This document shows positions 5,235-40,686 of a stretch of DNA of 64,000 nt, one piece after another. This DNA is from Clostridia bacterium (lineage in GTDB: Bacteria; Bacillota; Clostridia; RUG12999), in the NCBI GenBank assembly GCA_017467445.1, contig JAFTSG010000003.1:75753-139752 (forward strand). The letters run 5' to 3'. How positions within the stretch are numbered: position 1 is the first letter of the stretch; each line of letters starts with the position of its first letter. The notes under the pieces were generated by a model. That model worked only from the letters and a program-made list of their open reading frames with translations, had not been told where the DNA came from and searched no databases. The translations under genes were made by a program, and so were the position numbers.

Positions 5235-5245
5235 GAATAATTTCA

Positions 5246-5279
5246 AAGGCAGTTCAAAATGAACTGCCTTTTTCTTTTT
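5246..5279 (+). terminator. rho-independent terminator
   Basis: AAGGCAGTTC / GAACTGCCTT hairpin followed by TTTTCTTTTT. Confidence 0.75.
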
Positions 5280-5358
5280 GAATATGTAATATTTTTCATT
5301 TTACGAAAATATATATATACTACATGTACAATTGCATATTTGAAAAGGAGGAAAATAG

Positions 5359-6834: not shown

Positions 6835-6840
6835 AAAATA

Positions 6841-6866
6841 AAAAGGTGCCGACCGGCACCTTTTTT
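6841..6866. terminator. bidirectional terminator
   Basis: AAAAGGTGCC-GACC-GGCACCTTTTTT between convergent spoIVA and mnmE. Confidence 0.8.
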
Positions 6867-16110: not shown

Positions 16111-16178
16111 AGTTCACTCCATCAATAATATTTTTTATATTGTACCATTTTCGACAAAATCTGTAAATATGTTAACAT

Positions 16179-16210
16179 AAAAAAACCCTTGCATTTTTGC
16201 AAGGGCTTTT
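16179..16210 (-). terminator. terminator of the cotJ operon
   Basis: CCCTTGCA-TTTT-TGCAAGGG hairpin with a flanking A-run and T-run, 7 nt after the cotJC stop. Confidence 0.8.
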
Positions 16211-16216
16211 ATAGAT

Positions 16217-16609
16217 TTATCTGTCTGAATTTGTCATACAACGTTTTTGCTGAAGTCTGTCAAGAGCTTCACCGAAACGCTGGAAATGCACAATTTCTCG
16301 CTGACGCAGGAATTTGATAACGTCGTTTACGTCTGGGTCATCCGATACTGTAAGGATATTATCATACACCACTCTTGCTTTTTGTTCTGCTGCGAGGTCC
16401 TCTACTAAATCAGCAATCGGATCGCCCATTACGTTAATTGCCGTAAGTTTGAGCGCTTCACCGCCGGCATTTACCGGATACACACCTTTGCCGTGGTCAA
16501 TATAATATGCACCAAACGGGCTGTTTTCAATTTCTGATTCTTTCAGGTTTTTGGTAAGCTGATGCACAATTGTGCCTACCATTTCAAGATGTGCAAGTTC
16601 CTCTGTTCC
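16217..16609 (-). CDS. cotJC: cotJC (Mn-catalase-family spore coat protein), 3' segment of a split gene
   Basis: The frame opens at the junction with (G)TEELAHLEMVGTIVHQL... and continues through DLAAEQKARVVYD...FLRQREIVHFQRFGEAL, as in Mn catalases/CotJC. It has no start of its own except an internal Met. Confidence 0.85.
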   Translation of the reverse strand, partial: GTEELAHLEMVGTIVHQLTKNLKESEIENSPFGAYYIDHGKGVYPVNAGGEALKLTAINVMGDPIADLVEDLAAEQKARVVYDNILTVSDDPDVNDVIKFLRQREIVHFQRFGEALDRLQQKRCMTNSDR

Positions 16610-16931
16610 TGTGTTCTATACCATTTTGCTCTGTTGAAAAAAATTGAAAATTTTATTTTCAGCAATAGCACAGAAAAGTATGATTTTGAAAAATATTTTA
16701 AAAAAATTTTATATTGGACATAAATTTAGACAGTGTCGTTGTTATTAATATAGAGAGGTATATATACTAGTATAAAATAATAATACAACTTAACATTCTT
16801 AAACAACTCTTAATCAGATGGGGATTGTATCTATTAGGTATTTTGCAAGGTTGGGTGGTTGTGATATGTGTATAAAGTAGCCGTAGTCAATACGTTTTTT
16901 TGTTTTAATCAGGTAAATATTTGTAAAAGTA

Positions 16932-16960
16932 TTGAAAAAGATAAAGTTTTGTGTTAAAAT
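16932..16960 (+). promoter_or_regulatory. sigma-A-type promoter
   Basis: TTGAAA (16932-16937), 17-nt spacer, TGtTAAAAT extended -10 (16955-16960). Confidence 0.55.
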
Positions 16961-16967
16961 ACAATAG

Positions 16968-17092
16968 TCACGTAGTTAAATATTCTATTATACACCATAA
17001 GGCTTGCGTTGGTAAAAACGCAGGCTTGCTGTTCGTTCCCTTATGGTGTAATGGATTAACTGCGTGACAACAGGAGCATAGCCTCGTTTTTC
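16968..17092 (+). promoter_or_regulatory. structured 5' leader (nested helices), candidate cis-regulatory RNA of unknown class
   Basis: P1 is 16968-16979 / 17056-17067 (12 bp, one G-U). P2 is 16991-17002 / 17039-17050 (12 bp, perfect). P3 is 17003-17009 / 17018-17024. Lies between a promoter and a terminator. Confidence 0.4.
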
Positions 17093-17093
17093 G

Positions 17094-17121
17094 TGCGTGG
17101 GCTTATGCCCACGCATTTTTT
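17094..17121 (+). terminator. intrinsic terminator/attenuator upstream of the 17142 CDS
   Basis: TGCGTGGGC-TTAT-GCCCACGCA followed by TTTTTT, then GGAGG RBS and ATG. Confidence 0.75.
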
Positions 17122-17141
17122 AATTTATGGAGGTTTTGCAA

Positions 17142-18041
17142 ATGAAAAGATTTCTAAGTGTTTTGATGGTTGTGATATTATCAGTAAGTGTATTTATTGT
17201 TCCTGTATCAGCCAATAATGAGTTGTCAGTTGTGCTGAATGGTGAACCATTAGAATTTGACGTTCAACCACAAATAATTAATGGTCGTACCATGGTTCCT
17301 ATGCGTAAAATCTTTGAAGAATTAGGCGCAACTGTAGATTGGGATGGTAGCATACAAAAGATAACTGCAAAAAAACAAGATATAACAGTTGTTATGCAGA
17401 TTAATAGCAATATATTATCAGTAAACGGAAACAATGTTACATTAGATGTTCCACCGCAATTAGTTAATGGAAGAACTCTTGTTCCTGTAAGAGCGGTAGC
17501 GGAAAGTTTTGATATACATGTATTATGGGATGAAGTTTATAATAATGTTGTTTTATCTACATACATTCCTCTTGAAACATCAATACAAGCATTCAATTAT
17601 CTAGGTGCTTGGTTACTTGAGAATGGAAAAGTTTTTGGAGAATATGTATATGTAGGTTGGGAAGTAGTAGAGGGTGTTAATGCAGAAATTCGTTGTTATC
17701 CTGAAAGTGGGAATATAGCATTTTATCTTGATAGTTATCAAAATGACGGCATAATGACTGCAATAAATATATGGCCGACTTATGATGGAAACGATGTCTA
17801 TGCAACATATATTAGCGGTTCTCAAACTTGCAGAATTGATGGAAATATTAATATGGCGATGCATACCCCAAATTATCCACTTGCTTATAGAGAGTGTGAG
17901 CCAGGGGAATTTGAAACAACATACAACTTACTTGATGATACAAGAGAGAGAATTAATGTTTTGTTAAATGAAGTTGACTTGCTTTTAGCATTTGAGAATT
18001 CAGGTGTTAATTTAAATACGTTAGGTTTTAAAAAATATTAA
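17142..18041 (+). CDS. secreted protein with copper-amine-oxidase-N-terminal-like (stalk) repeats
   Basis: Signal peptide MKRFLSVLMVVILSVSVFIVPVSA. Two repeats of LNGEPLEFDVQPQIINGRTMVPMRKIFEELGATVDWD / VPPQLVNGRTLVPVRAVAESF. Start chosen 8 nt after GGAGG. Confidence 0.7.
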   Translation: MKRFLSVLMVVILSVSVFIVPVSANNELSVVLNGEPLEFDVQPQIINGRTMVPMRKIFEELGATVDWDGSIQKITAKKQDITVVMQINSNILSVNGNNVTLDVPPQLVNGRTLVPVRAVAESFDIHVLWDEVYNNVVLSTYIPLETSIQAFNYLGAWLLENGKVFGEYVYVGWEVVEGVNAEIRCYPESGNIAFYLDSYQNDGIMTAINIWPTYDGNDVYATYISGSQTCRIDGNINMAMHTPNYPLAYRECEPGEFETTYNLLDDTRERINVLLNEVDLLLAFENSGVNLNTLGFKKY

Positions 18042-18062
18042 TATTTTATTTCTTCATGGGCG

Positions 18063-18091
18063 TTGACTATAGTATTTAATGGAGGTATAAT
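18063..18091 (+). promoter_or_regulatory. sigma-A-type promoter
   Basis: TTGACT (18063-18068), 17-nt spacer, TATAAT (18086-18091). Confidence 0.6.
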
Positions 18092-18097
18092 ATATAT

Positions 18098-18257
18098 AAG
18101 TAAATTATATGAATATATGATTTGCTTGTAATTATGGTATCGAGTGCAACGGCACGGGCTTAATGATTATTTAAGTTGGTGGCGGTGGCGGTGGTTTCTT
18201 TAGTGGATGCTAAAGATATTAAATAATGAATAGAGCATAAGCCTGTATTGGCTTTAA
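18098..18257 (+). ncRNA. candidate small RNA or leader (no ORF longer than 16 codons)
   Basis: Lies between a near-consensus promoter and a strong terminator. Contains a GGTGGCGGTGGCGGTGG micro-repeat. Confidence 0.35.
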
Positions 18258-18289
18258 GTGTCGTTACAATCGGTAACGGCACTTTTTTT
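18258..18289 (+). terminator. intrinsic terminator
   Basis: GTGTCGTTAC-AATCG-GTAACGGCAC followed by TTTTTTT. Confidence 0.8.
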
Positions 18290-18324
18290 GTGCAGAAATA
18301 TTTTTATAAGGGGGGGTAACGGAT

Positions 18325-18819
18325 GTGTTACATAGCGGTATTTTCAAAGAGATAGTTAAGAGAAATAAGAATTATAATGGTATCAGCATCAAGTTTACAA
18401 CTGTTGCAGTATTTATCAGGAGAGTTCTTGACTTGTTAGGGTTGTATAGTGTAGCGGATGCGGAAAATGGTATGGTTAGAGCAATTAAGGATGATGAAGA
18501 ATTTGAGATTATTGTTGACAGGACAAATCAAAGGATAGTGTTAGAGGCAGACCTTTGGAGTGTTGGCACAAGAGCCTTTGCAAAGAAGAAAGTCCAGACG
18601 CTTGAAAGACTTAACAGATATAATCAAAATTTAAACTTCGGGTATTGTATGCTTGTTGGGTTTAAGGTTATATACCATACAACAGAAAGTATCTATATGG
18701 GTGTAGATGATGCGGAAGATATGGCAGTTGCAGACGGGTTGATAAGGCATTATATGATTGATACAAAGTTAATAAAAGATATGGTATTTTCTGATGGACT
18801 TGATTGCGTCGGCACGTAA
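18325..18819 (+). CDS. hypothetical protein (element cargo)
   Basis: 164-aa ORF with a GTG start 7 nt after a G-rich RBS (AAGGGGGGG). I recognise no family. Confidence 0.45.
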   Translation: MLHSGIFKEIVKRNKNYNGISIKFTTVAVFIRRVLDLLGLYSVADAENGMVRAIKDDEEFEIIVDRTNQRIVLEADLWSVGTRAFAKKKVQTLERLNRYNQNLNFGYCMLVGFKVIYHTTESIYMGVDDAEDMAVADGLIRHYMIDTKLIKDMVFSDGLDCVGT

Positions 18820-19290
18820 GCGAAAGTGTTTGTTTAAAAGCGTTGGAAAATTTACGGTAATTTTTCAACCAACACAAATTTGCTGGATTTTCAGTAGGTA
18901 GATTTTTGAAATTTTAGTTATCGGATGCAAAAAGTGTCAAAAGTGTTGGTTTTAGTTCGGGAGTGGAATGTGAAAATTTGCAGATTATTTCAATCTTATT
19001 TATCTTATACCATTAAATAGTGGTCGCAGAAAATTAAGATTAAAGAAATCAACAAAAATTTGATTTTAACATCAAGAAAAGGTTGAAATTACGGCATTTT
19101 GTGATTTTAAAATTTGCATCGTGATTTTGTGTTGAAATGACAGTATTTTTATAAAATTACATAAAATTTGTGGTTAAGAGATGAAAAAAGAGAGTTCATA
19201 TATTTTAAGTTATGGGTACGTTCTACCTATACAGGCTACTTGTGAGGTTTGGCGTATTCAATAGATTTATTCATAAGGTAGGTGTTAAAT

Positions 19291-19881
19291 ATGGAATACG
19301 GTTATGTTCGTGTGTCAAGCAAAAGTCAGGCAGAAAATCATTCTCTAGCAGAGCAAGAACAGACAATCTTAGAAAAGTATCCTTCGGCAGAGATACGCAG
19401 AGAAGTGTTTACTGCTGCAAAAGACTTTAATAATAGACAGGTGTTTAATGACCTAATTGACAGGTTGACAGATGGGGATTGTTTGATAGTTTCCAAGATG
19501 GATAGATTTTGCCGTAATGTTCGCGAGGGGTTAGATATCATAGAACATTTGATGGATAAGGGTATTAAGATAGATATACTGAATTTAGGTGTTATAGATA
19601 ATACGCCTGTTGGCAGGTTAACTTATACAATCTTATTGTCTTTTGCAGAATTTGTGAGAAATATGATTGTAGAGCGTACACAAAGCGGTCGCGAACTTGC
19701 AAGACAAAAGGATGGGTACATAGAAGGCAGACCAAGAAAATTTAGCAACACACAACTCGCATTGGCGATGCAGTTGTTAGAAAACCATTCATATAAACAA
19801 GTTTCATCGATGACAGGTATATCAAAGAGTACACTACAAAGAGAAAAGAAAAGGACAGTTGACAAAAATAACAGGACATAA
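19291..19881 (+). CDS. small serine recombinase (resolvase/invertase family)
   Basis: [13 protein letters not shown] catalytic-Ser N-terminus, [19 protein letters not shown]-terminal HTH ([17 protein letters not shown]). ATG placed behind an AAGGTAGG RBS. Confidence 0.85.
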
Positions 19882-19993
19882 ATTTTAAAAAATTAACTAA
19901 AATCTAAAAAAATTTACTGATGAGAGCAAAACTGACTAAAATGCACACAGTTACCTTAAATTAAGTATCAATTCGTAAGGGAGGGTACTTAAA

Positions 19994-20212
19994 ATGGGTA
20001 GTGCATTAAGACAACCTTATAACGCATATACATCTATTGGTGGTGTTATGCCTATGGGAAATAAAGTTAATGTTGTTCTTTCAGATAAAGAGAAAGAGAA
20101 CTTAAATCACAGTCTTAAATCTTCTGTATATAAAGAATTATATAGAAAGTCTCTTATTACAGATAGAGAGTTAAGATTATTGTTAGAAAAAGCGCCTAAA
20201 TTTTTAAATTAG
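19994..20212 (+). CDS. small hypothetical protein (candidate accessory or directionality factor)
   Basis: 72-aa ORF with a GGGAGGG RBS, directly upstream of the large recombinase gene. Confidence 0.4.
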   Translation: MGSALRQPYNAYTSIGGVMPMGNKVNVVLSDKEKENLNHSLKSSVYKELYRKSLITDRELRLLLEKAPKFLN

Positions 20213-20225
20213 GGGCTGAGATATC

Positions 20226-20258
20226 GGAGTGGTTGCGTTATAATACAGTGACCACTCC
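20226..20258. promoter_or_regulatory. inverted repeat enclosing a TATAAT box upstream of the large recombinase gene
   Basis: GGAGTGGT (20226-20233), 17-nt spacer, ACCACTCC (20251-20258). TATAAT at 20239-20244 lies in the spacer. Confidence 0.35.
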
Positions 20259-20299
20259 ACAAATACATTAGAAAAATAGTTAAGTGAGGTTAAAGAATT

Positions 20300-21982
20300 A
20301 TGGTAGATTTGAAAAGATTAAGTAGTAGTAACGTAGTAGCATTTAGTCCTTTTAATGTGTTAAATGATGCAAAGGCGTTGCGCGTAGCCGCTTATGCAAG
20401 GGTTAGTACAGATAAAGATGACCAAGCCAATAGTTTTGAAAGTCAGGTTAAATATTTTACAGAGTTTATTGACAAACAAGAAAATTGGCAGTTGGTTAAG
20501 GTTTATAGTGATGATGGTATTTCAGGAACATCAACCAAAAATCGTGTTGGGTTTAACTCAATGATAGATGATGTTACGGCAGGTAAAATTGATTTTATTA
20601 TAACAAAAGAGGTTTCGCGCTTTGCCAGAAATACAGTTGATACATTGCAGGTAACAAGAGACCTGAAAGAAATGGGTGTTGGAGTTTACTTTATGCTTGA
20701 TAACATTAACACACTTGACAAAGATGGCGAACTTCGCTTGACGCTTATGGCATCTCTTGCACAAGAAGAAAGCAGAAAGACATCAGAACGCGTCAAGTGG
20801 GGGCAGAAAAGACAAATGGAAATGGGTGTTGTCTTTGGTCGCAGCCTGCTTGGGTATAAAGTAGTTGAAGGTAAGTTATATCTGGTTGAAGAAGAAGCAG
20901 AAATTGTTAGAAAGATATTCCATAAATACCTCAATGAAGGTAAAGGTACTCATATAATAGCAAGGGAACTTAAAGAAGAAGGTATCAAGACGTATAACCC
21001 TGATGGTCGTGCAAAATATAAGAATGATTGGTCAAACACACAGATTTTGCGTGTTCTTCGCAATGAGAAATATGTTGGAGATTTGGTGCAAAAAAAGACT
21101 TGGACACAAAACTTTTTAGACCACAAGAAAAGGTATAACAGGGATAATGAAGAGATGGTTAGAATTGAAAACCACCATCCAGAGATTGCAATTATATCAA
21201 GGGATATGTGGAATGCGACACAAGCGGAGTTGCAACGTCGTACGACAACGGCAGAACAGAAATCTAAACATAGTAATAGGTATTGGGCATCAGGTAAAAT
21301 CTATTGTGGGGTATGTGGCGAAAGATTTGTAAACAAAATAAAAAAGACATCAGCAGGCACATCAAGGGCTTGGAATTGTATGAACCATATCAAACCACAC
21401 GCTTTTCGTAATGCAGAGTGTTCTATGTCAGAATGGGCAAGTGACAGGAGTATGAAGAATATTGTTCTTTATATCCTTAATATGTTAGTTGAGAGCAAAG
21501 ATGAACTTAAGACAGAGATTGTAAAGGAGATTTCGCAGTTAAATCTCGAACAAAAAGTTAAGTCAACAGATGATATTCAAGATAAAATTGACAGATTAGA
21601 ACAGAAAAAATTAAAATTGATTGACATTAGAACAGAGGGTGAAATCTCAAAGGAAGATTTTATGAAAAAGATAACTCAATTTGAAACAGAGATTTCAGAG
21701 TTGAAGATACAGTTAGAAGAAATAAAAGAACTTGCTACCACTAAACAACGTCAGCAGGATAGGATGGATAGTATTATCAAGGAAATTGACAAGGTATTGC
21801 AGTTAGATAGTGAAGATTTGGATGAACTGTTAGGAACAGTTACACAAAGTATAACAGTTTATGAAGGTCATACTGTTGTAGTAAGGCTTAAGGATGTACC
21901 TTTTAATTTCAAGGTAGTCTATAAGTCAACAGGTAAATTAGATACATATAGAACAGAGATTTTAAGTCTTGAAGTGGTATAA
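20300..21982 (+). CDS. large serine recombinase (SpoIVCA-like)
   Basis: 560 aa. RVAAYARVSTDKDDQANSFESQ catalytic N-terminus, YSDDGISGTS, recombinase domain, Cys-containing zinc-ribbon region and a C-terminal coiled coil. Confidence 0.9.
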   Translation: MVDLKRLSSSNVVAFSPFNVLNDAKALRVAAYARVSTDKDDQANSFESQVKYFTEFIDKQENWQLVKVYSDDGISGTSTKNRVGFNSMIDDVTAGKIDFIITKEVSRFARNTVDTLQVTRDLKEMGVGVYFMLDNINTLDKDGELRLTLMASLAQEESRKTSERVKWGQKRQMEMGVVFGRSLLGYKVVEGKLYLVEEEAEIVRKIFHKYLNEGKGTHIIARELKEEGIKTYNPDGRAKYKNDWSNTQILRVLRNEKYVGDLVQKKTWTQNFLDHKKRYNRDNEEMVRIENHHPEIAIISRDMWNATQAELQRRTTTAEQKSKHSNRYWASGKIYCGVCGERFVNKIKKTSAGTSRAWNCMNHIKPHAFRNAECSMSEWASDRSMKNIVLYILNMLVESKDELKTEIVKEISQLNLEQKVKSTDDIQDKIDRLEQKKLKLIDIRTEGEISKEDFMKKITQFETEISELKIQLEEIKELATTKQRQQDRMDSIIKEIDKVLQLDSEDLDELLGTVTQSITVYEGHTVVVRLKDVPFNFKVVYKSTGKLDTYRTEILSLEVV

Positions 21983-22057
21983 AGAAAATGGCAAAGCATA
22001 CTGATTTCAGTAGGCTTTGCCTATCTTTGTATAAAGGAGCAAAATCGTCGCTGATAG

Positions 22058-28765: not shown

Positions 28766-28814
28766 TGGAGTAAGCTGACTCCCCTCGGCTTAGCTTTTGA
28801 TATTGGAGGAAATT

Positions 28815-30569
28815 ATGGCTTTTGACGGTATTACAATGAAATGCATAGCTACCGAACTTAGCACCCGGCTTTGCGGCGGCAGAGTGGACAAAATATATAT
28901 GCCCGATAAGGACACTATTGTAATTTCTGTACGTAGCACAGGAAAAAATTACAAGCTTTTTTTATGTGCCAATCCCTCCATTCCAAGGATTTATCTTACC
29001 GAAAGTGCAAGAGAAAATCCGCTTTCTCCGCCTGTTTTCTGTATGCTTCTTCGTAAGCATTTAAGCGGCGGACATATAACGCACATTTCCTGTCCCGATG
29101 TTGAAAGGGTTATTGAAATCGGGATTGAATCCAAAAATGAGCTTGGCGATATTGGTGTAAAACGTCTTATAATTGAAATTATGGGTCGATACAGCAATAT
29201 TCTGCTTGTAAATGAAAACGGTTCTATTGCCGATTGCGTGCGTAAAATTGATGCATCTGCCCCCGGTGAACGTATACTTTTGCCCGGTGTGAAATATGAG
29301 TTTCCTCCAAAACAGAACAAGGTTTCTCCGCTTGAAACGGATTTTGATGAAATACGCAGCATTGTTTCTGCATGTCCCGATGAATTAAAAATGGACAAAC
29401 ATATTTTAAATTCCTTTGCCGGACTCTCCCCTGCGGTGGCGCGCGATTTTGTATATGCCGCCTGCGGTGATATGGATGCACAAGGAATGAGCTTTGATGA
29501 TGAAACGAAAGCTATTCTTGCAAAACATATTGCAGGAATATTTGATAAAATAAAAGTTTCCGAATTTGAGCCTGTTATTATTAAAAATGACGATACGCTG
29601 CCGTTTGATTTTTCATGTTTTGATTTGAAACAGTATGACACAAAAGAGCGTGTCCCCGCACTTTGTGAAGTGCTGGATGATTTTTATATAGAACGCGAAA
29701 TAAGGCAGAGGTTAAATCAGAAAAGCAGCGAAATTTCAAAAACGGTTTCCAACCTGCTTGCAAGATACAGAAAAAAAGCTACTCTTCAGCAACAGGACAT
29801 TGAAAACGCAGGTCAAATGGATAAATACAAACTGTATGGCGACCTGATTACTGCAAACATATACCAGATTAACGCAGGTGACACACGGCTTATTGCACAG
29901 AATTTTTATGACGAAAATCTGCCGGAGATTGAAATTCCGCTTGACGCAAATCTTTCTCCTGCGAAAAACGCAAGTAAGTTTTATGCCAAATACAACAAAC
30001 TCAAAAGCACCGCTATTCACGCAGCTCGGCAGCTTGAAATTACAAATTCGGATATTGAATATCTGATGAGTGTAGAGTCATCTATTGATACCTGCGAAAA
30101 TATGCGCGATATTGCCGAAATTCGTCGTGAGCTTGAGGCAGGCGGATATATAAAAGCACAGAAGAACTCGGAAAAACCGAAAAAGGACGAGACGATTGTT
30201 TTAAACAAATTCATCAGCTCCGACGGGTTTGAAATTTATGTGGGTAAAACCAGCCGTCAGAATGATTATCTGACGATGAAATTCGCGCGGTCCCGAGATA
30301 TATGGATGCATACCAAAAACATCCCCGGCTCGCATACTGTAATTATAACCGGCGGCAAAGATGTGCCTGACAGAACGCTTGAAGAGGCGGCAAATTTGGC
30401 GGCATATTATTCAAAGGCAAGACAAAGCAGCGGCGTTGCGGTTGATTATACCGAAATTAAAAATGTTAAAAAACCATCCGGCGCAAAACCCGGTATGGTT
30501 ATATATGAGGAGTATTACACGATTTATGTTACTCCCGACGAAGAAAAAGTGAAAGAGATGTCAAAATGA
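28815..30569 (+). CDS. rqcH: ribosome quality control factor RqcH (NFACT / FbpA-like)
   Basis: [16 protein letters not shown]-terminus (NFACT-N), coiled-coil middle, C-terminal [16 protein letters not shown] (NFACT-R). ATG is 7 nt after GGAGGA. Confidence 0.9.
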
Positions 30570-33067: not shown

Positions 33068-33199
33068 ATATATCCACTTCCTTCATAAGATGCATTAATA
33101 TATTAACATATTATGCATTTTTCGGCTGTGCGGTTACTTGCGTTTTTTATATTTTTGGATTATAATAGAAAGTGATAAATTATGCTTAAGGATTACGAT

Positions 33200-35710
33200 A
33201 TGAAAAGATTATGTATTGGAATTCTTGCCCATGTTGACAGCGGAAAAACCACACTTTGTGAGGGGCTTCTTTTTGCCGCAGGCGAAATACGAAGGCTGGG
33301 CAGGGTTGACCATAAGGATGCTTTCCTTGATACAAACGAAATAGAACGTGACAGAGGAATTACAATTTTCTCTAAACAGGCAATTATAAACGCGTTTGAT
33401 ACGAAAATCAGTTTGCTTGACACTCCGGGACACGTGGATTTTTCTGCCGAAACCGAAAGAACTCTACGTGTGATTGACTATGCCATTTTGGTAATAAGCG
33501 GGTCGGAGGGGGTACAAAGCCATACAAAAACCCTTTGGAATTTGCTTTCCCATTACGGTGTACCAACCTTTATTTTTGTAAATAAAATGGATTTGCCGGA
33601 AACGAACAGAGAAAATATGCTCTCCGAACTTCAGACCGAGCTTTCCGGCGGATGTATTGATTTTGAAAATTTTGATTATGAACAGGCCGCAACACTTGAT
33701 GATGCTCTTTTTGAAGAATATATGTCAAGTGACAGTTTGTCTGAAAAATCCATTAAAAATGCCATTTCCGGACGCAAAATATTCCCCTGCTTTTTCGGTT
33801 CGGCACTTAAAAATGAGGGTGTTGATTCTTTTCTTGAAAATGTTTGTAAGTTTACATCGGAAAAGAAAACAAACGAAGAATTCGGTGCAAAGGTGTTTAA
33901 AATTTCGGAAGATGAACGAGGCGTGCGCCTTACTCATATAAAAGTTACAAGCGGAAGTCTTAAAGTAAAAAGTGTAATTGGTGACAATAAGATTAACGAG
34001 ATTCGTATTTATTCGGGTGTAAAATACACTCCTTCGCAGGAGGTTTTTGCGGGTGAGGTGGCGGCTGTTACGGGACTTCCTGAAAGCTATCCCGGTATGG
34101 GGCTTGGGTGCGACCCGGACAGCGGCGAGCTTACTATGGAGCCGGTATTTACCTACAGCGTAGTTTTACCGGATGGAGCTGATATTCATACTGCCCTTAC
34201 TGCACTTCGCAAGATAGAGCAGGAAGAAACGCAGATGCACGTTATTTACAACGAGCTTCTGCAGAAAATTGATGTGCAGATTATGGGAATGGTTCAGCTT
34301 GAAGTATTAAAACGAATACTCGCTGACAGATTTTCCATTGACGCAGAGTTTGAACACGGAAGTATTATATATAAAGAAAGTATTGCAACTGCAGTTGAGG
34401 GTGTTGGGCATTATGAGCCGCTGCGCCATTATTCCGAGGTGCATTTACTCTTAGAACCGGGTAAACGCGGCAGCGGGCTTGTATTCAAATCCGCCTGCAG
34501 TGAGGATGTACTTGACCGCAATTGGCAGCGCCTTATTATGACACATCTTAAAGAAAAGACGCATCTTGGTGTGCTGACAGGCTCGCCCATTACGGATATG
34601 AAAATAACCCTTGTCAACGGACGTGCACATCAGAAGCATACCGAGGGCGGTGATTTCCGTCAGTCGACATACCGCGCGGTGCGGCAGGGACTGATGATGG
34701 CGGAAAGCGTACTTCTTGAGCCGTATTACAATTTTGTGCTTGAAGTACCGCTTGACAAAACAGGTCGTGCAATGACGGATTTGCAGCAGATGGGTGCGGA
34801 GTTTAAGCCTCCGGTTACGAAAGAAAATACAACCGTTATTTCGGGTAGCGCACCTGTTTCTCGTGTACGTGACTATCACCTTGAGGTGATTTCATATACG
34901 CACGGTGAGGGCACTCTTTCATGCAGTTTCGGCGGATATATGCCGTGTCAGAATGCGGATGAAGTAATAGAAAAAATCGGATATAATCCTGAAGCAGATA
35001 CCGCAAACAGCGCCGATTCCGTATTTTGTGAGCGTGGCAGTGGATTTACGGTTAAGTGGAATGAAGTTTATGATTATATGCACATTCCCCTGCTTTCAGA
35101 TAAGAAGAAAGAAAACGAGCCTATTGTGCGGAAATATGAAAAGATTACCGCAAGCGAGGAAGAACTTTTAAAGATATACGAAAGCGTGTACGGCAAGATA
35201 AAACGTGAGCTGCCAAGACCGATGAAAACACCGAAAACTCCTAAGCCATATAAAGAAAAACCGATTGCAAACATGCAGACATATCTGCTGATTGACGGAT
35301 ATAATATTATCTTTGCATCGAATGAGCTTAAAGCTATAGCGCAGGACAGCTTTGATGCGGCACGCGAAATTCTTATCCGAAAAGTATGCAATTACAAGGC
35401 AGTTCGCCCGTACAATATCATTCTTGTGTTTGACGCATATAAGGTAAAGGGCGCAAAACGTGAGATTGAGGAAATAAGCGGTATTACTGTTGTGTATACA
35501 AAAGAAGCGGAAACCGCCGATGCGTATATTGAAAAAACGTCGAAAGAGCTTGCAAAGAATTACCGAGTTCGTGTTGCAACCTCTGACGGACTTGAGCAGA
35601 TTATTATTTTCAGTCAGGGCGCAATGCGAATTCCCGCATCGGAATTCTGGGCGGAAGTAAACACCGCCGAGGATGAAATAAGGGAATTTATAAAAGAATA
35701 TAATAGATAA
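33200..35710 (+). CDS. EF-G/TetM-like translational GTPase fused to a C-terminal NYN (Rae1/YacP-like) nuclease domain
   Basis: G domain AHVDSGKTTL, DTPGHVDF, NKMD, followed by EF-G-like domains II-V. A Lys/Pro linker leads to YLLIDGYNIIF...LVFDAYKV...ETADAYIE...VATSDGLEQ. Start at 33200 (AAGGA RBS) or 33182. Confidence 0.8.
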   Translation: MKRLCIGILAHVDSGKTTLCEGLLFAAGEIRRLGRVDHKDAFLDTNEIERDRGITIFSKQAIINAFDTKISLLDTPGHVDFSAETERTLRVIDYAILVISGSEGVQSHTKTLWNLLSHYGVPTFIFVNKMDLPETNRENMLSELQTELSGGCIDFENFDYEQAATLDDALFEEYMSSDSLSEKSIKNAISGRKIFPCFFGSALKNEGVDSFLENVCKFTSEKKTNEEFGAKVFKISEDERGVRLTHIKVTSGSLKVKSVIGDNKINEIRIYSGVKYTPSQEVFAGEVAAVTGLPESYPGMGLGCDPDSGELTMEPVFTYSVVLPDGADIHTALTALRKIEQEETQMHVIYNELLQKIDVQIMGMVQLEVLKRILADRFSIDAEFEHGSIIYKESIATAVEGVGHYEPLRHYSEVHLLLEPGKRGSGLVFKSACSEDVLDRNWQRLIMTHLKEKTHLGVLTGSPITDMKITLVNGRAHQKHTEGGDFRQSTYRAVRQGLMMAESVLLEPYYNFVLEVPLDKTGRAMTDLQQMGAEFKPPVTKENTTVISGSAPVSRVRDYHLEVISYTHGEGTLSCSFGGYMPCQNADEVIEKIGYNPEADTANSADSVFCERGSGFTVKWNEVYDYMHIPLLSDKKKENEPIVRKYEKITASEEELLKIYESVYGKIKRELPRPMKTPKTPKPYKEKPIANMQTYLLIDGYNIIFASNELKAIAQDSFDAAREILIRKVCNYKAVRPYNIILVFDAYKVKGAKREIEEISGITVVYTKEAETADAYIEKTSKELAKNYRVRVATSDGLEQIIIFSQGAMRIPASEFWAEVNTAEDEIREFIKEYNR

Positions 35711-35740
35711 GGGTGAAAGCAGTTGCTTTCACCCTTTGTT
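35711..35740 (+). terminator. terminator hairpin T1 (copy 1 of a duplicated hairpin)
   Basis: GGGTGAAAGC-AGTT-GCTTTCACCC followed by TTTGTT, directly after the stop at 35708-35710. Confidence 0.65.
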
Positions 35741-35747
35741 ATCGCAA

Positions 35748-35764
35748 GACATAGAACCGTCCCC
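35748..35764 (+). repeat. 17-nt motif copy A (GACATAGAACCGTCCCC)
   Basis: Near-identical copies at 39912-39928 (inverted) and 40719-40735 (direct). Confidence 0.85.
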
Positions 35765-38700
35765 TGTCACTAATTTTCTTCGGAACATCAATATCCCTTG
35801 CCGGATTTTCGCCTTTTGGTATTACTCCATATTCCCTTGCTTTATTAAGCCATTCTTCCCAAAAGTCAGTATTTACCCCAACAAAAGAAAACTTTACATC
35901 TTCTCCGTTTCTTCCTTCAGCTGATGAAGTTTCTCCACTACTTCTTTCTCCGTATCGGTTTCCATTATTATTTTCACCGTCTGTAATATTTTGTTTTTCG
36001 TATTCATTTCCGAAATCAGTTGCATAGTATCGTCCGATAACTGGTCCACTCTTCGCAGATATTCCTCGTCTTTCCAGTCCATAAATAAACCTCCTTATAT
36101 CAGCTAAAGCCGTTTCATCATGCTCGTATATTTCTATTACGCTTGTAATAATAGGATTTGTAATAGTACCCTTTGCAAACACAAGAACATTATTAATACC
36201 CTCACGATCCGAGTCATATATATTGCTGACAGGTATAATGTACTCTCCGATCTTACTCTTATTAAATTTAACCCTTCCTGATTTAGCATCCGCAAATTTT
36301 GAACGATAGTCCGCATTTTGCCCTGCGTTCAAAATATCATTTGCTCTCGCCCATCCAAAATCCCGATATTCTTTATCCGTATATTGTCCGGTATCTTTCG
36401 CTGCTTCAACAGCTTTCATATAATCCGAATCTTTGGTAGATAGATTAAATTTTACTTCATCTTCCCTATTCTCGATACTATGTTGGTTATTTCTGCTTCT
36501 GTCGTGTTCAGTACTCCGGTTTCCGTCTTGCTCTCTATCCACTTTTTGAACTTCTGCAGTTTCTCCACTGTGTTTATCAGAACCGTTATTGTCATCAGAA
36601 CTTCCTCGTCTATTTTCACCGAATCCCTGATTTGGTTCATTATTTGAAACAACATCTTTTCTTCCTGACTGTGGTCTATTATTTCTGTCATCTTTATCCC
36701 TCTCTTCGTATTCAATCATATTTCTTTCATATCTTGAAAGTGATTTCTTACTTATTTTTTCTACAACCAGATAACCCAATTCCATACTGTCAAACTTTTC
36801 AACAAGGTATGGTGTATCTTTGTAGAAAAATATTCTTTGAGCTCCTGTCTCTATTTCATCATTATGCGCCCATCTTGATGCTCTTTCATTTGCATCGCTA
36901 TGAGATTTATTAAACGGCGGAAATACTCCACCGGGGAACAGGGCAAGTTTTACATCTCCCCCTGCATCAATACTCTCCGCATATTCTGCAGCAGTATTCT
37001 CTGCTTTACTTTCCGATGTTGCTGCCGGCACAGATTCTTCAACACTATAGCTTCTGATTTCACTTCTGAAAGTCTTAATTTCTTCAGCAAATCTATCAGC
37101 GAACTCAAGGGTTCCTGCGTTTATGTTTGCAAGAATTTCGCAGTCTATGTAGTTATTGCAATACGCCTGCCACTATTTTTCCGGTATAGTATTTTTAAAC
37201 TGTTTTCGTTTTTCGGCTAATATGCCGCTGTATTTTTCACGAAAGTTTCTTCTTATTGCCGCTAATTCACTTTTCGACAACCGACTTGTTAAAGCACTTA
37301 AGAATTTGTTGTGTGCAGCCGTACCCTCGTAATTATGTGTAATTTCGTGGTCTGCCAACTCCTCAATAGAATGCTGACTATTATTCATTGACAAATACAG
37401 CGTTCCTTTATAAATAAATGCATTTCCCGTGTCTTTCGTCTCCAATACATATGCTTCTCCTGCAAAATATACCGTTTTAAGTCCGTATTCATTCTTGTTC
37501 TTCTTTGCAAGATTAGTCATATCATCGGACCAATCTTCCGAGCTTACTTCATCGTAAGCAATGGTAAGACTTTTAGCCTTTATTTCTCGTTTTGTTGTTT
37601 TGCCTTTGTATATTTCTCTTTCAATTTTTCCTGCTCTTTCTTGAACTCTTTCACCATTCCTGCCGGAACGCTCGCCAATGTTCCATCCCAAGCCTCGACC
37701 GTTACGAACAGCTCGTCTTTCATCAGTTCCCTCAAATTCATAACTTTCTACACCTATTACCCTTTCTGTATTCTTATCAACTTGTTCCGTTTTGAAAATA
37801 GTTTCATCGGCATTTATATTGCCGTTTAAAGCCTCAATGACTTTTATGCCGCCATCTGCAAACAAACTTTCAAAATCACCTATGGATTCACCTTTCTCAT
37901 GACGTGCTATGATTTCATCAGCCAATCCGCTTATGCCATCATCGCCAAACTTATCCGCCAACATACTCATCAGGTCGTTGTTGGAAAGTATTTCCGGTCT
38001 CAAGGTTTTTTCTATTGCATTAGAAACCTTTGTTATTTCATCTTCCAATGCATCATTTTCAGCATTATTGCGTATACTATCATTGACAATATTCTCATCT
38101 TGTGATATAATATTGTTAGATGATGTTTCCCCAAGCGAGCTGTTATCATCATCAGCTTTAGACTTGGACTTGAAAGAAGCATCATCTTTTTTTATTATAA
38201 TGATATTCCCCTCATTGTCAGACACTTCGTGTAAATAGTATCTATTATCTGTTTCGCTTTTGGTTACAACAACACCCACAAATGCTTTTTGCGCACCTAT
38301 CTGAATCGGTGCTGCAAAAACATAGCTGTCGTAGTTTCTACCTTTCCAATTTTTTACAAAATCAATCTGTCGCCCTTTTTCTATTACAGCAGGAACACTT
38401 GCAAACGCAATCGCTTTTGCTCTGCCCATTCCGTGAGCTATACTGCTGTCAACACCTTTGTCATTTATGGCTACATCGCCGAAATTATCTCTATGAACTA
38501 CGCCATCCAAACTTTCAAAGTATTCATATACCTGCTGTGATAATTTCTTTTCTCCTACCTCAAATTCATATCCTGTTGCTTCATACACAACAGGGTCATT
38601 CTCTAACAGAGGTATGCTGTCCGTTAATTTTTTGAACAGTTCATTTCTTTTCTGAGAGTTTGTTGTTTTATCTGATGCAGTATCAGAGATGTTTTTTTCA

Positions 38701-39911
38701 TTTTCAGGCGTTTTAGTAACACTTTCATACAACGTTGTTACATCTTCATTAGCCGAACTATTTTTATCTGAATCGTGCATATTTTGTTCATCTATGCCTG
38801 TTACATCTGTTGATGAACTACCGTCGTCAACACGGATTATTTGACTGTCATCAAACACTATGTATGATTGTCCATTTACCGATTCTGAATTGTTATTATA
38901 CACAACGCCATCATAGTTTTTGTTTTGTAAAAGTTTAGTAAGTGAAGCGTTACTTTTCTGTTTATCCTTCCTGCTTGTTGTCCAATACTCTAAAGCTTCT
39001 TCTTCGGTTAAAATCCCCATGTCTTTTAGCTTTTTAGCAATTTGGAAAGCGTTCCAACCGGAAAAATCCTCTTCCATAATAAGAGGATTTTTTATATTAA
39101 GATATGCTTTTATAAAGGTTGGATTATCATATTCCTGGTCTTGTGCTCGTTTGTACGCCTGCGCATAACTGCCGAAATGGAACCCTATATCACCAATTTC
39201 GAATTTATCAAATGCCTTGTTCGTTGCGTGATAAACAGGTATAAGCTGTCCGTTTTCGTTCTTTACAACGGTATTTTTCAGCTTATCAAGAATAGGCTTC
39301 TCAATAACTCTACCCGTTATATCTGTATCCGAAGATTTTTCAACATTAAAATATGCTTCAATTTCATCTGCAAATAACCCACGAAGTTCATTATCAGGGT
39401 TTGTAAGCATATCATAAGTGATAACAGCTGAAAAATCATAATCTTCTTCTGTTATTCGTGTATCTTTCTGATATTGTTCAAACAAATCATTTTGCAGTGA
39501 ATAACTTACCTCGTTACCAACAAACGCAGAAAGGTTAATAAAGGTTTTGTCGTTTAAGAGTGTTTCAAGAGTTCTTGTTTCAACTCTGCTATCGCTTCGT
39601 CTGTCAGCTGAAATCTTGCTGAGTCTGCCAACACGTCCTTGATTGAGTTGATTATCCACTCCTCTTGCTTGTCCTTCGGTTTGCATTTCGCTATATCGGT
39701 TATCATTTTTATAAATGTCTGCCCTTGAGTCAGTGCCATTATCGTTCACTCCTCCACTATTCTGTGTATTAATTATATCACCATTCAAATCTGAATTCAA
39801 GACGTTTGTTTCTGCCGCAACATCTATGCTGTTAAGCCAACTTGCAACAAGCGGGTCTGTGTTACCTTTAAATACTCTGTGAAATTCACTGCTTATTAAA
39901 ATAATGGTAAT

Positions 39912-39928
39912 GGGGACGGTTCTATGTC
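39912..39928 (-). repeat. 17-nt motif copy B (inverted)
   Basis: GGGGACGGTTCTATGTC on the plus strand, overlapping the transposase stop and the first codons of the polyvalent frame. Confidence 0.85.
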
Positions 39929-40686
39929 CTTTCAATAATTCCTTTACTAATCCCCGTTAACCTACTGATTTGTCTAATTGATAATCCGTTGTTTTTTAGT
40001 TTAGCTAATAACTTGTTCCGTATTTCAGGTTTCAACTGTTGGAATTCATTTGCATTTTTGCATGTTGAAATTTTTTGTATTATACGTTTAGCTTCTTCAT
40101 CCGTAACTCCGAATGTTCTGTCGGATAAATCAAGGCAGCTATCATTATTTATATACTGATGAAATTCGATGAAACTGTCTATACCTATCATATTCAATAC
40201 TAATTCAGTATCAATTATATTTCTGTTATTCGCACTAAGATATTCTTTATAACTATTAAACGGATATTCGTTTATGTTTTCTGCTAATTGAGCCTTTAAA
40301 GGATTTTGGTGAATATAACGTAATACAGTTAAAAAATATTTATTATCCTCTACCGGTTCACTTTTAAATCGATCTTGAAACAAATGACCAATGCGTTTGT
40401 ATTTTGTATTAAACCAGTATACATACTTACCGGCAATGCGCTTCATTACACTTTGAAGTTCTTCCTTTTCTTCTTTTAAAAGCAAATGCAAATGATTGCC
40501 CATGAGGCAATATGCATATACTTTATATTGACATATTTCTTTATATTCTTTCAAAATTTTTAAAAACTTTAGGTTATCTTCTTCATCTTCAAAAATTTGC
40601 TCTTGGTTTATTCCTCGCAACATAATATGGTATATTCCACTTTTGCTTTTTATTCTAGCCTGTCGCGGCATATAAATCACCTCCAA
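39922..40686 (-). CDS. IS200/RAYT-like HUH Y1 transposase with a C-terminal HTH
   Basis: 254 aa. MPRQARIKSKSGIYHIMLRG, HUH motif GNHLHLLL, GHLFQDRFKS, catalytic-Tyr block LRYIHQNPLKA, C-terminal LSIRQISRLTGISKGII. Confidence 0.8.
   Translation of the reverse strand: MEVIYMPRQARIKSKSGIYHIMLRGINQEQIFEDEEDNLKFLKILKEYKEICQYKVYAYCLMGNHLHLLLKEEKEELQSVMKRIAGKYVYWFNTKYKRIGHLFQDRFKSEPVEDNKYFLTVLRYIHQNPLKAQLAENINEYPFNSYKEYLSANNRNIIDTELVLNMIGIDSFIEFHQYINNDSCLDLSDRTFGVTDEEAKRIIQKISTCKNANEFQQLKPEIRNKLLAKLKNNGLSIRQISRLTGISKGIIERT

Follow-up and report, generated by a model that had tools for sequence, protein, structure and literature searches.

An EF-G/Tet-type GTPase joined by a flexible tether to a Rae1-type NYN nuclease domain in gut Clostridia

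We confirmed that one gene in the 64,000-nucleotide stretch of Clostridia DNA analysed here (the window) encodes, in a single polypeptide, a five-domain EF-G/Tet-type GTPase, a small folded module, a flexible tether of about 60 residues, and a YacP/Rae1-type NYN nuclease domain. The fusion is old and widespread in gut Clostridia. On the evidence set out below, we lean toward reading it as a ribosome-docking GTPase that would carry a Rae1-type mRNA endonuclease on a flexible leash and act as a GTP-dependent sensor of problem ribosomes.

The fusion gene and its domains

The gene lies in a single open reading frame on the forward strand (33182..35710, 842 aa). Its true start is the ATG at 33200, which gives an 836-aa product, because relatives begin at MKR, an AAGGA sequence stands 7 nt upstream, and gene calls agree; the exact 836-aa product was reported by gene callers in six independent metagenome contigs or assemblies. 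The original prediction had placed the gene at 33200-35710, and these coordinates are right. Residue numbers given here follow the 842-aa numbering (open reading frame from 33182). A search of Rfam returned no RNA leader or riboswitch for the gene, and the hairpin directly after its stop codon is a probable bidirectional terminator between convergent genes. The features are as follows.

33188..33192, + strand: Shine-Dalgarno sequence AAGGA, 7 nt before the ATG at 33200 (read from the sequence)
33200..35710, + strand: whole fusion gene (translational GTPase, tether, NYN; 836 aa), including the stop codon
33209..33853, + strand: G domain, aa 10-224 (Pfam GTP_EFTU, 2.3e-50)
33881..34354, + strand: domains II and III, aa 234-299 and 320-391 (Pfam EF-G_D2, EFG_III)
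34361..34702, + strand: domain IV, aa 394-507 (Pfam EFG_IV, 1.3e-17)
34397..34444, + strand: domain IV tip loop EGVGHYEPLRHYxEVH, family-specific and invariant
34625..34660, + strand: domain IV tip loop AHQKHTEGGDFR, family-specific and invariant
34709..34954, + strand: domain V, aa 510-591 (Pfam EFG_C, 2.6e-16)
34955..35089, + strand: mini-domain after domain V, aa 592-636 (AF2 model 2, conservation)
35090..35284, + strand: tether, aa 637-701 (AF2 pLDDT, family alignment)
35156..35197, + strand: conserved tether helix EELLKIYESVYGKI
35198..35284, + strand: basic Lys/Pro-rich tether segment
35285..35701, + strand: NYN_YacP (Rae1-type) endonuclease domain, aa 702-840 (Pfam, 4.1e-46)
35709..35736, no strand assigned: GC-rich 12-bp hairpin directly after the stop codon

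The assignment of the two enzymes made from the letters alone is borne out far beyond chance by the Pfam matches to GTP_EFTU (2.3e-50) and NYN_YacP (4.1e-46). All the motifs that had been quoted are present, in the GTPase (AHVDSGKTT, DTPGHVDF, NKMD), the linker (PRPMKTPKTPKPYKEKP) and the nuclease (LLIDGYN, LVFDAYK, ETADAYIE, ATSDG). The nuclease domain had been expected from about nt 35280; it is where it was predicted, with its first nucleotide at 35285.

The G domain contains G1 (AHVDSGKTT), G2 (T61), G3 (DTPGH84), G4 (NKMD) and G5 (GSAL) and has a reduced G' insert, and residues K22, T61, D80, H84, K135 and D137 are kept in at least 230 of 231 family members. The EF-G_D2 and EFG_III matches are under the Pfam cutoff in the window protein and over it in relatives, and AF2 model 2 predicts both domains with confidence. 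The most conserved stretch of the whole protein is the domain IV tip, where G409, H410, E412, P413 and D491 occur in all 231 members and H416 and H486 in 230; in alignments to TetO/TetM and EF-G, the family-specific tip loops occupy the place of Tet loop III (YYSPVSTPADFR). In EF-G and TetM this tip reaches into the 30S A site, and its invariance is as expected for a module that would read a universally conserved ribosomal site. Domain V aligns with TetM/TetO (hhalign probability 96%) up to the GY(x)P motif. The mini-domain that follows is modelled, together with aa 585-591, as a helix, a beta-hairpin and a helix (pLDDT ~81-89, AF2 model 2), with C589, C616, W626, V629 and H634 conserved. Its homology to the TetM/TetO C-terminal helix is suggestive only and unproven: the local hhalign alignment ends at domain V, and the C-terminal helices are paired by a forced global alignment only. 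The fold of the body is that of EF-G/EF2 (Foldseek 1e-52, TM up to 0.70; AF2 pLDDT 81). Collectively, these data show that the N-terminal 630 residues form a complete EF-G/Tet-type factor, catalytically competent to judge by its conserved residues, and the GTP gating envisaged in the original prediction is plausible because the GTPase residues are invariant.

The NYN_YacP match (PF05991) scores 157-164 bits against a cutoff of 24.6, with 157 bits for aa 702-840 of the window protein. When the NYN part alone was compared with the PDB, it matched B. subtilis YacP/Rae1 (5MQ8/5MQ9) with E=1.7e-25 and ~42% identity over 138 residues. The acidic residues, which had been expected to be retained, are D705, D751, D780 and D802; they are present in 227-228 of the 231 members and align as a set to D7, D53, D81 and D104 of Rae1, with D705 equivalent to D7 and D780 to D81 in the alignment to 5MQ8/5MQ9. 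The Rae1 D7N D81N double substitution is the published catalytic mutant and is inactive (PMC10351889). The fused domain covers Pfam positions 1-141 of 166, whereas B. subtilis Rae1 covers 1-166; the conserved C-terminal tail of stand-alone Rae1 (positions 142-166) is missing from the fusion. Both enzymes are, judging from their sequences, under purifying selection.

The tether runs from a disordered acidic or neutral segment through the conserved helix to the basic Lys/Pro-rich segment, and its pLDDT falls below 50 on either side of the helix, which is itself of low confidence (AF2). Across the family its length has a median of 83 aa (5th-95th percentile 70-131, maximum 196), yet the helix and basic segment keep a fixed distance to the NYN domain even when the tether reaches ~200 residues. 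In the helix, E661 is kept in 215 of 231 members, L662 as L/I/V in 226 and I665 in 209, and the basic segment is net positive in 196 of 209 members. The AF2 models gave no confident contact of the helix with either the GTPase or the NYN module. A relocated Rae1 C-terminal tail was considered as the origin of the helix (EEVLKTFEKW vs EELLRIFEQTYG) and rejected, as an artificial circular permutant gained only 1.7 bits in Pfam score; the linker alone did not match the Pfam Rae1 model. As modelled, the long flexible tether would rule against precise positioning of the nuclease by the GTPase, so that no particular cleavage site follows from the architecture.

Distribution, inheritance and genomic context

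A frameshift or an assembly artefact had been named as what could undo the fusion. The fusion is real: besides the six assemblies, one intact fusion ORF is present in 80 of 80 GTDB loci. The architecture is common to all of the best 120 homologues and is found in more than 150 clusters at 50% identity, whose best 150 representatives all match at E<=1e-187 and almost all measure 822-1156 aa; a search with the two domain IV tip peptides brought up at least 600 stretches from genomes of GTDB species. More than 97% of the 231 members, a diverse set from at least two orders, retain the fusion. Its carriers belong to Oscillospirales, Lachnospirales and Monoglobales and include Faecalibacterium, Ruminococcus and Agathobacter. 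One member, P0253, is genuinely unfused: it has 642 aa, carries the same signature, and ends at the post-domain-V mini-domain. Because P0253 exists, the GTPase can presumably function without a covalently attached nuclease. No other C-terminal partner domain was found on the same GTPase chassis, and the two apparent exceptions are artefacts, an aminotransferase read-through (P0252) and a frameshift (P0218).

A TetM-like/NYN_YacP fusion in Clostridia was noted earlier by Atkinson (2015, BMC Genomics; PMC4342817) and by Matelska et al. (2017, NAR; PMC5499597). They described this very family, with identical domain order and taxa, and the window gene is one more orthologue; the architecture was mentioned briefly, in a sentence or two ('ten species of clostridiales'), and its function was left open. 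New here are the number of GTDB species hits and of 50% clusters given above, the invariant active sites, the family-specific domain IV tip, the segmented tether, the vertical inheritance and, probably, the loss of stand-alone yacP.

The tree of the fusion family follows taxonomy, the gene has no conserved neighbours, and it is not on true plasmids or phages; on these grounds we regard it as a vertically inherited core gene. Plasmid carriage was rejected, the PLSDB matches being mislabelled pieces of chromosome, and so was phage carriage: two 'Bacteriophage sp.' records are UNVERIFIED and carry addAB, feoB and gltX, that is, bacterial DNA. Among the 80 loci there is no conserved operon partner, the best neighbour being an ABC ATPase in only 13. 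Neither rlmB, mrnC nor cysS is near the fusion in the window or in those loci, and at the locus examined for sigH (L072) the neighbours of the fusion are unrelated, which says little about sigH. The original prediction had also pointed out rqcH 2.6 kb away and had allowed that this might be coincidental. The gene is indeed there, 2.6 kb upstream at 28797-30569 (NFACT_N, 7e-139), and the proximity is coincidental: none of the 80 related loci has rqcH, queA, dpaA or dpaB within 10 kb of the fusion, and a functional linkage to rqcH was rejected, since the synteny does not extend beyond the one species.

Where lineages lack the fusion, yacP adjoins rlmB, as seen in 13 species-level records. Monoglobus, Vescimonas and Subdoligranulum have rlmB without yacP beside it, and in 1.30 Mb of Monoglobus sequence the fused copy of yacP is the only one present; this evidence covers partial genomes, namely about half of one genome and fragments of three others. 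With C. difficile Rae1 as the query, the best 120 matches were all from Peptostreptococcaceae and so do not bear on the fusion-bearing orders. Wherever this could be tested, yacP is absent from its canonical place beside rlmB; this is consistent with replacement, and, as far as these partial genomes reach, the fusion has probably taken over from stand-alone Rae1 in its carrier clades.

Proposed function and its alternatives

In B. subtilis, Rae1 cuts translated mRNAs in a translation- and frame-dependent manner (PMC10351889, PMC12407103), and a 2026 preprint on the CART pathway places it at collided ribosomes (PMC13622287). Its binding to the ribosome is transient, for which reason there is no ribosome-bound structure (PMC13622287), and the collided ribosome of a B. 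subtilis disome is in a rotated/hybrid state (PMC10897456). A-site cutting by Rae1, the premise on which the original prediction built its delivery model, is outdated; current work locates Rae1 at the trailing edge of ribosomes that have stalled or collided (Deves et al.; PMC13622287). The general idea of a ribosome-delivered nuclease stands as a reading of the protein's sequence, whereas delivery to the A site in a fixed geometry is unlikely, given that 70-131 residues of mostly disordered tether lie between the GTPase and the nuclease.

We propose that the GTPase module, in its GTP form, binds the factor site of a ribosome unable to proceed. This ribosome may have stalled with its A site accessible, in which case binding would be Tet-like, or it may have collided and be in a rotated state beyond translocation by EF-G, in which case binding would be EF-G-like. 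The recognised state is not decidable from sequence because overall similarity to Tet and to EF-G is equal (232/227 vs 222 bits) and the domain IV loops resemble neither. The NYN domain would thereby be held at a high local concentration near the mRNA of that ribosome and would cut most likely at the mRNA-entry edge or the disome interface, in the same inter-ribosome segment as B. subtilis Rae1, ~12 nt 5' of the stalled A-site codon. GTP hydrolysis, involving H84 and the sarcin-ricin loop, would release the factor, and the truncated mRNA would pass to trans-translation, as in the Rae1/CART pathway. Where the fusion replaces Rae1, the GTPase module would take over ribosome targeting. A stronger form of this proposal is possible but doubtful: the fusion would be the sole Rae1-type stall/collision nuclease in Oscillospirales, Lachnospirales and Monoglobales, and the invariant His/Glu-rich domain IV tip, by probing the A site, would add a GTP-dependent proofreading of the ribosome state before the cut.

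Rae1 has newly become central to ribosome-collision rescue in Gram-positive bacteria, and a covalent fusion is a strong hint as to where and how it engages the ribosome. If the stronger form of the proposal is true, Bacillus Rae1 would, by Rosetta-stone logic, likewise approach the collided ribosome on its factor-binding or mRNA-entry side, perhaps with a translational GTPase as partner. A GTPase that can be locked on the ribosome (with GDPNP or an H84 mutant) could then provide the first structure of a Rae1 nuclease engaged with its substrate, and a trappable GTPase is a practical handle for cryo-EM and biochemistry. As a core gene of Faecalibacterium, Agathobacter and Ruminococcus, the fusion is probably the main stalled-ribosome mRNA surveillance route of the dominant human and ruminant gut Clostridia.

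We leave a small but real chance that the substrate is rRNA or tRNA: the GTPase would dock immature or defective ribosomal particles and the NYN domain would make a maturation or degradation cut, comparable to the eIF5B-stimulated cleavage of pre-18S rRNA by Nob1 in eukaryotes or to ribosome turnover in stress or sporulation. There are rRNA-processing enzymes among NYN/PIN-like nucleases, stand-alone yacP shares an operon with the rRNA-maturation genes mrnC and rlmB (PMC5499597), and this operon context first prompted a proposal of rRNA/tRNA processing (PMC4342817). A GTPase at the factor site would presumably put elements of 16S and 23S rRNA, like mRNA, within reach of the nuclease, and the basic arm could bind any RNA. 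However, the only characterised member, B. subtilis Rae1, cuts translated mRNAs (PMC10351889, PMC12407103), none of the 80 loci links the fusion to rRNA-processing genes, and the invariant domain IV tip suggests that a mature decoding centre is recognised.

It is unlikely, in our judgement, that the two halves work independently, the fusion merely co-expressing a specialised EF-G/Tet-like factor and Rae1 through a tether without a role in delivery. The unfused GTPase P0253, which carries the same signature, and the length and disorder of the tether would fit such an arrangement; the near-universal retention of the fusion, the conserved helix and the basic segment with their constant spacing to the NYN domain, the loss of the Rae1 C-terminal tail and the lack of alternative C-terminal partners among the members speak against it.

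A tetracycline-type ribosomal protection protein, in which the nuclease adds a new resistance mechanism, was suggested by Atkinson in 2015 (PMC4342817), and we consider it very unlikely. The best NCBIfam model is tet_protect, the body aligns with TetO and TetM end to end in one stretch, and PGAP names the orthologues 'TetM/TetW/TetO/TetS family'. However, the tet_protect score of 409.7 bits is well short of the curated cutoff of 775, as is that of the TetM/W/O/S model (256 vs 1100), and identity to Tet(M), Tet(O), Tet(S) and TetB(P) is only 28-30%. The drug-dislodging loop III, YYSPVSTP, is swapped for an unrelated invariant AHQKHTEGG loop, domains IV-V score better against EF-G, and the gene is chromosomal, vertical, off mobile elements and free of any resistance-gene context. 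The Tet label that PGAP gives to many members is in all likelihood mistaken, and in gut metagenomes it can make resistome counts too high.

RelE is a ribosome-dependent mRNA nuclease that destroys mRNA globally. Least probable of the readings considered is that the fusion acts in such a manner, as a conditional shut-off or defence device whose GTPase would, upon a stress or phage signal, deliver the nuclease to all translating ribosomes; a defence by Rae1 against invader mRNAs has been speculated (2026 preprint, PMC13622287), but the fusion has no PADLOC match, no defence-island or antitoxin context, and the phylogeny of a core gene, and the 'phage' records are bacterial DNA.

Comparison with known systems

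The nuclease half has its closest known relative in Rae1/YacP of B. subtilis (PF05991), with which it shares the NYN fold and the catalytic aspartates; the chemistry and the ribosome-associated mRNA cleavage are presumed to be the same. Rae1 consists of one 170-aa domain that ends in a conserved C-terminal tail; its gene lies next to rlmB and sigH, and its contact with the ribosome is only transient. The fused domain, by contrast, has neither that tail nor that operon context, forms the end of an 836-aa protein and is linked covalently to a factor-site GTPase.

Tet(M) and Tet(O) share with the fusion a five-domain EF-G-like body of ~640 residues in collinear alignment, and their C-terminal module may be related to that of the fusion. 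They differ in that the fusion is encoded by a non-mobile gene, does not conserve loop III, and has an extra tether and nuclease; in contrast to the association of Tet(M)/(O)/(W)/(S) with mobile elements and to their near-identical copies in distant taxa, the fusion was met in PLSDB only on chromosomal fragments, and its tree follows taxonomy. EF-G has the same fold, and its loop II His (H483) is kept in 212 of 231 members, but its loop I, GGRGQ(Y/F)G, reads GVGH(Y/F)EPLRHY in the fusion. In domains IV-V the fusion stands a little nearer to EF-G than to Tet, and the scores against EF-G models all fall below cutoff (TIGR00484, 274.6 vs 659.4; PRK12740, 307.9 vs 583). By these sequence criteria, the fusion cannot be a housekeeping translocase.

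The job proposed for the fusion, recognising problem ribosomes, is that of SmrB in E. coli and MutS2 in B. subtilis. SmrB cuts mRNA between collided ribosomes to feed tmRNA. Both, however, have an unrelated fold (the SMR domain) and recognise the disome interface directly, not through a GTPase factor site. In eukaryotes, Ski7-exosome and Hbs1/Dom34-Cue2 couple a GTPase-like module flexibly to mRNA decay at stalled ribosomes (PMC11806357); these systems consist of individual polypeptides or of complexes held together non-covalently, and their nucleases are different ones. We know of no characterised bacterial counterpart with a covalent GTPase-nuclease link. If the stronger form of the proposal is true, the fusion would be a single-polypeptide bacterial analogue of Hbs1/Dom34-Cue2 or Ski7-exosome.

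A fused GTPase–nuclease gene and its inheritance

The window carries an uninterrupted single ORF at 33182..35710 (+), whose functional start codon is ATG 33200; in relatives the protein opens at the equivalent MKR, and an AAGGA Shine–Dalgarno sequence lies 7 nt 5' of this ATG. Gene calls in six independent metagenome assemblies give exactly this 836-aa product, and the surrounding gene order is identical in all of them. Pfam searches resolved an EF-G/TetM-like translational GTPase followed by a Rae1 (YacP)-type nuclease domain; unless marked, residues are numbered along the 842-aa ORF from 33182.

Domains of the fusion protein encoded at 33200-35710 (+)
Residues 10-224: GTP_EFTU (Pfam, 2.3e-50)
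Between these and domain IV: EF-G_D2 and EFG_III (Pfam, both weak)
Residues 394-507: EFG_IV (Pfam)
Residues 510-591: EFG_C (Pfam)
Residues 585-636 (34934-35089): post-domain-V mini-domain with C589, C616, W626, and H634 near-invariant (211-215/231 members)
Residues 702-840: NYN_YacP (Pfam, 4.1e-46)

Searched alone, the C-terminal part matched the crystal structures of B. subtilis YacP/Rae1, 5MQ8 and 5MQ9 (E=1.7e-25); for the GTPase body, Foldseek gave a firm assignment to the EF-G/EF2 fold (E about 1e-52, with target TM reaching 0.70). These results bear out the original prediction of a GTPase–NYN fusion, including its coordinates, the NYN_YacP identity of its C-terminus, and the quoted motifs, every one of which was found in the window protein.

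The same architecture was present in 120 of the 120 closest homologues listed (59–92% identity, 837–879 aa). GTDB species-representative genomes were queried with two family-specific domain IV peptides, EGVGHYEP and LRHY[AS]EVHL, which yielded at least 600 matching stretches; the best 80 all span residues ~7-840, each as one intact ORF. The fusion is therefore genuine rather than an assembly or frameshift artefact. The best 150 representatives of a 50%-identity library (E<=1e-187) are nearly all 822–1156 aa long; together with the window protein and the 80 GTDB loci, they make up the 231 members used for conservation counts. Among the named hosts are Faecalibacterium, Ruminococcus, Flavonifractor, Intestinimonas, Oscillibacter, Anaerotruncus, Monoglobus, Acutalibacteraceae, Dorea, Herbinix, Agathobacter rectalis, and other Lachnospiraceae. 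In a neighbour-joining tree built from the GTPase body, the branching tracks taxonomy: Lachnospiraceae, Oscillospiraceae, and Faecalibacterium each form a group, as do most Ruminococcus, indicating that the fusion gene is old and vertically inherited. The architecture has been reported twice (PMC4342817; Matelska et al. PMC5499597), and we found no experimental work on it in the literature searched.

In the window, the gene is monocistronic and divergent from dpaA/dpaB, and a terminator hairpin comes after it; an Rfam search detected no RNA leader. As had been noted, with the caution of possible coincidence, rqcH lies 2.6 kb upstream. None of the 80 related loci carries rqcH, queA, or dpaAB within 10 kb of the fusion, and no neighbour is conserved among them; the proximity of rqcH is therefore coincidental. 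Downstream, a polyvalent-protein gene (35739-39935 (-); ART-PolyVal and LPD3) is split into 430-aa and 920-aa ORFs and followed by an IS200/Y1 transposase (39922-40686). Four other assemblies of the species have this gene as a single 1398-aa ORF, and this region looks like a mobile-element remnant that is disrupted or variant in the window genome. Separately, 16001-22000 has a low GC content (0.34-0.35) and a strong positive GC skew (+0.12 to +0.34), unlike the rest of the window.

Competing identities, unfused relatives, and stand-alone yacP

A tetracycline ribosomal protection protein was rejected, as the tet_protect score of 409.7 falls short of the 775 cutoff, the protein shares only 28–30% identity with Tet(M), Tet(O), Tet(S), and TetB(P), the drug-displacing loop is unconserved, and the gene lies off mobile elements. 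NCBI PGAP often names fusion orthologues 'TetM/TetW/TetO/TetS family tetracycline resistance ribosomal protection protein', among them the A. rectalis gene (L085, NZ_CP143948.1, 24767-27568) and library proteins P0043, P0050, P0086, P0100, and P0101. Because the family scores under the cutoffs of the Tet models and has no Tet loop, this naming is probably a systematic mis-annotation, which could falsely raise gut resistome counts. The protein is not EF-G either, since every EF-G model scores under its cutoff. Two virome contigs labelled 'UNVERIFIED: Bacteriophage sp.' (L090/L091; MT835563.1, MT835514.1) carry the fusion; their neighbouring genes are addA/addB, feoB, gltX, and a DinG-type helicase, so that the contigs are bacterial chromosomal DNA rather than phage genomes and the gene is not phage-borne. 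PADLOC gave no match to a known defence gene.

The survey of fused versus split forms returned the fused architecture in all 80 best GTDB loci and a genuine unfused GTPase, P0253; two other seeming exceptions were artefacts. P0253 is a complete internal 642-aa gene (L093, 2679-4607), found inside two contigs, that carries the family domain IV signature without tether or NYN domain, and NYN genes are absent within 4 kb of it; the GTPase can hence exist alone. It branches outside all fused members in the tree and may represent a pre-fusion state or a secondary loss. It ends exactly past the post-domain-V module, at TetM length, so tether and nuclease were probably appended to a Tet-length ancestor.

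Stand-alone Rae1 in fusion-bearing genomes was examined in a partial test on chromosome fragments that PLSDB mislabels as plasmids. Among them are records of 250-520 kb from Monoglobus pectinilyticus (L083, L096, L099, and L100; NZ_OY7257xx) and A. rectalis (L085/L095; NZ_CP143948.1), on which smc, secA, prfA/B, rpoBC, sigH, rlmB, and operons of ribosomal proteins are found. In lineages without the fusion, a stand-alone NYN match directly adjoins rlmB in 13 species-level records (C. difficile, Acetoanaerobium, three Bacillus, Paenibacillus, two Listeria, S. aureus, Aerococcus, Latilactobacillus, and Collinsella). The Monoglobus, Vescimonas, and Subdoligranulum records contain rlmB and no NYN match. 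In fusion-bearing Monoglobus, rlmB is followed by a phosphoesterase, pta-ackA precedes sigH, the genes before rpmG-secE-nusG are unrelated, and the fused copy is the only one in the 1.30 Mb of assembly examined; the A. rectalis nusG locus gives the same picture. These partial genomes are consistent with, and not genome-wide proof of, replacement of stand-alone Rae1 by the fusion. In Vescimonas fastidiosa (L101, NZ_AP023416.1), a 718-aa hypothetical protein without Pfam domains (5231-7387) begins 10 nt after rlmB, in the slot of yacP in Bacilli and C. difficile.

Catalytic residues, domain IV tip, and tether

The GTPase residues K22, T61, D80, H84, K135, and D137 are each kept in at least 230 of the 231 members. 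The domain IV tip is the most conserved stretch of the entire protein, with G409-H410-(Y/F)-E412-P413 and D491 in 231/231 and H416 and H486 in 230/231. The fusion is a predicted competent GTPase of the factor site, and its domain for probing the A site is extremely constrained. At the tip (34397-34444, 34625-34660), an unusual invariant His/Glu/Asp cluster (H410, E412, H416, H421, H483, H486, and D491) sits where the decoding centre would be entered; it may serve RNA recognition alone or have its own chemistry. The NYN aspartates D705, D751, D780, and D802 are present in 227-228/231 members; of these, D705 and D780 correspond in the alignment to D7 and D81 of Rae1, the pair mutated in published catalytic-dead Rae1 (PMC10351889).

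An AlphaFold model (101-sequence alignment; pLDDT 81, pTM 0.56) gave the post-domain-V module as a confident helix, beta-hairpin, and helix, in which C589, C616, W626, and H634 may form a metal site or pack against domain IV. In the window tether, two segments with pLDDT <50 (634-651 and 668-691 in the 836-aa numbering) lie on either side of a low-confidence helix that bears the conserved motif EELL(R/K)I(F/Y)ExxYGKI. Across the family, the median tether is 83 residues long (70-131 from the 5th to the 95th percentile, and at most 196), and the motif-to-NYN spacing stays about 35-45 residues through low-complexity expansion. This segment is net positive in 196/209 members (median +4 over 33 residues), unlike the GTPase body and NYN domain, which are net acidic. 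The fusion carries a predicted competent Rae1-type nuclease on a flexible, partly basic tether. Some members (e.g., P0171 and P0154) have low-complexity insertions of 200-300 residues, rich in G/A/S/D/R, within the G' region or tether, with all catalytic motifs and the motif–NYN spacing kept.

Proposed mechanism and comparison with Rae1, Tet proteins, and EF-G

The fusion is real and the original prediction described it correctly, although it was already in the literature and the premise of A-site cleavage is outdated: Rae1 was first modelled in the A site, and later work puts it on collided ribosomes. According to a 2026 preprint, Rae1 makes tmRNA substrates on collided ribosomes but binds them too transiently for a ribosome-bound structure to exist (PMC13622287). 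Of the two ribosomes in a B. subtilis disome, only the collided one is rotated, the stalled one being non-rotated (PMC10897456). Mapped Rae1 cleavage falls in the inter-ribosome mRNA segment of the disome. On the 30S subunit, the factor site is at the side where mRNA enters, and the collided ribosome's entry side abuts the stalled ribosome's exit side.

We propose that the GTP form would dock on a ribosome unable to proceed, the tether holding the nuclease within roughly 60 Å of the factor site (random-coil estimate; about 200 Å fully extended). An EF-G-like module would bind the collided, rotated, non-translocating ribosome and, because of disome geometry and the mapped inter-ribosome cleavage, place the nuclease at the known Rae1 site. 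Alternatively, a Tet-like module would bind a stalled ribosome whose A site is empty and place the nuclease at the 3' edge of that ribosome. GTP hydrolysis would free the factor, and the cut mRNA would enter trans-translation. With Rae1 now at the centre of collision rescue and no structure of it on the ribosome, a natural GTPase–Rae1 fusion offers an informative clue that experiments can readily address.

The fusion departs from stand-alone Rae1, and its domain IV tip from both TetM/TetO and EF-G. Its NYN domain stops at Pfam model position 141/166 and thus lacks the conserved C-terminal tail of stand-alone Rae1; loss of this tail and probable loss of the stand-alone gene suggest that the GTPase took over ribosome targeting. 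Loop III of TetM/TetO, YYSPVSTPADFR, becomes AHQKHTEGGDFR in the fusion, and a loosely similar P(V/I)CQ...DKVR(Y/H)MF closes TetM/TetO, whose homology there to the post-domain-V module of the fusion is without statistical support. Compared with EF-G, H483 aligns with the loop II histidine, whereas the loop I motif is replaced.
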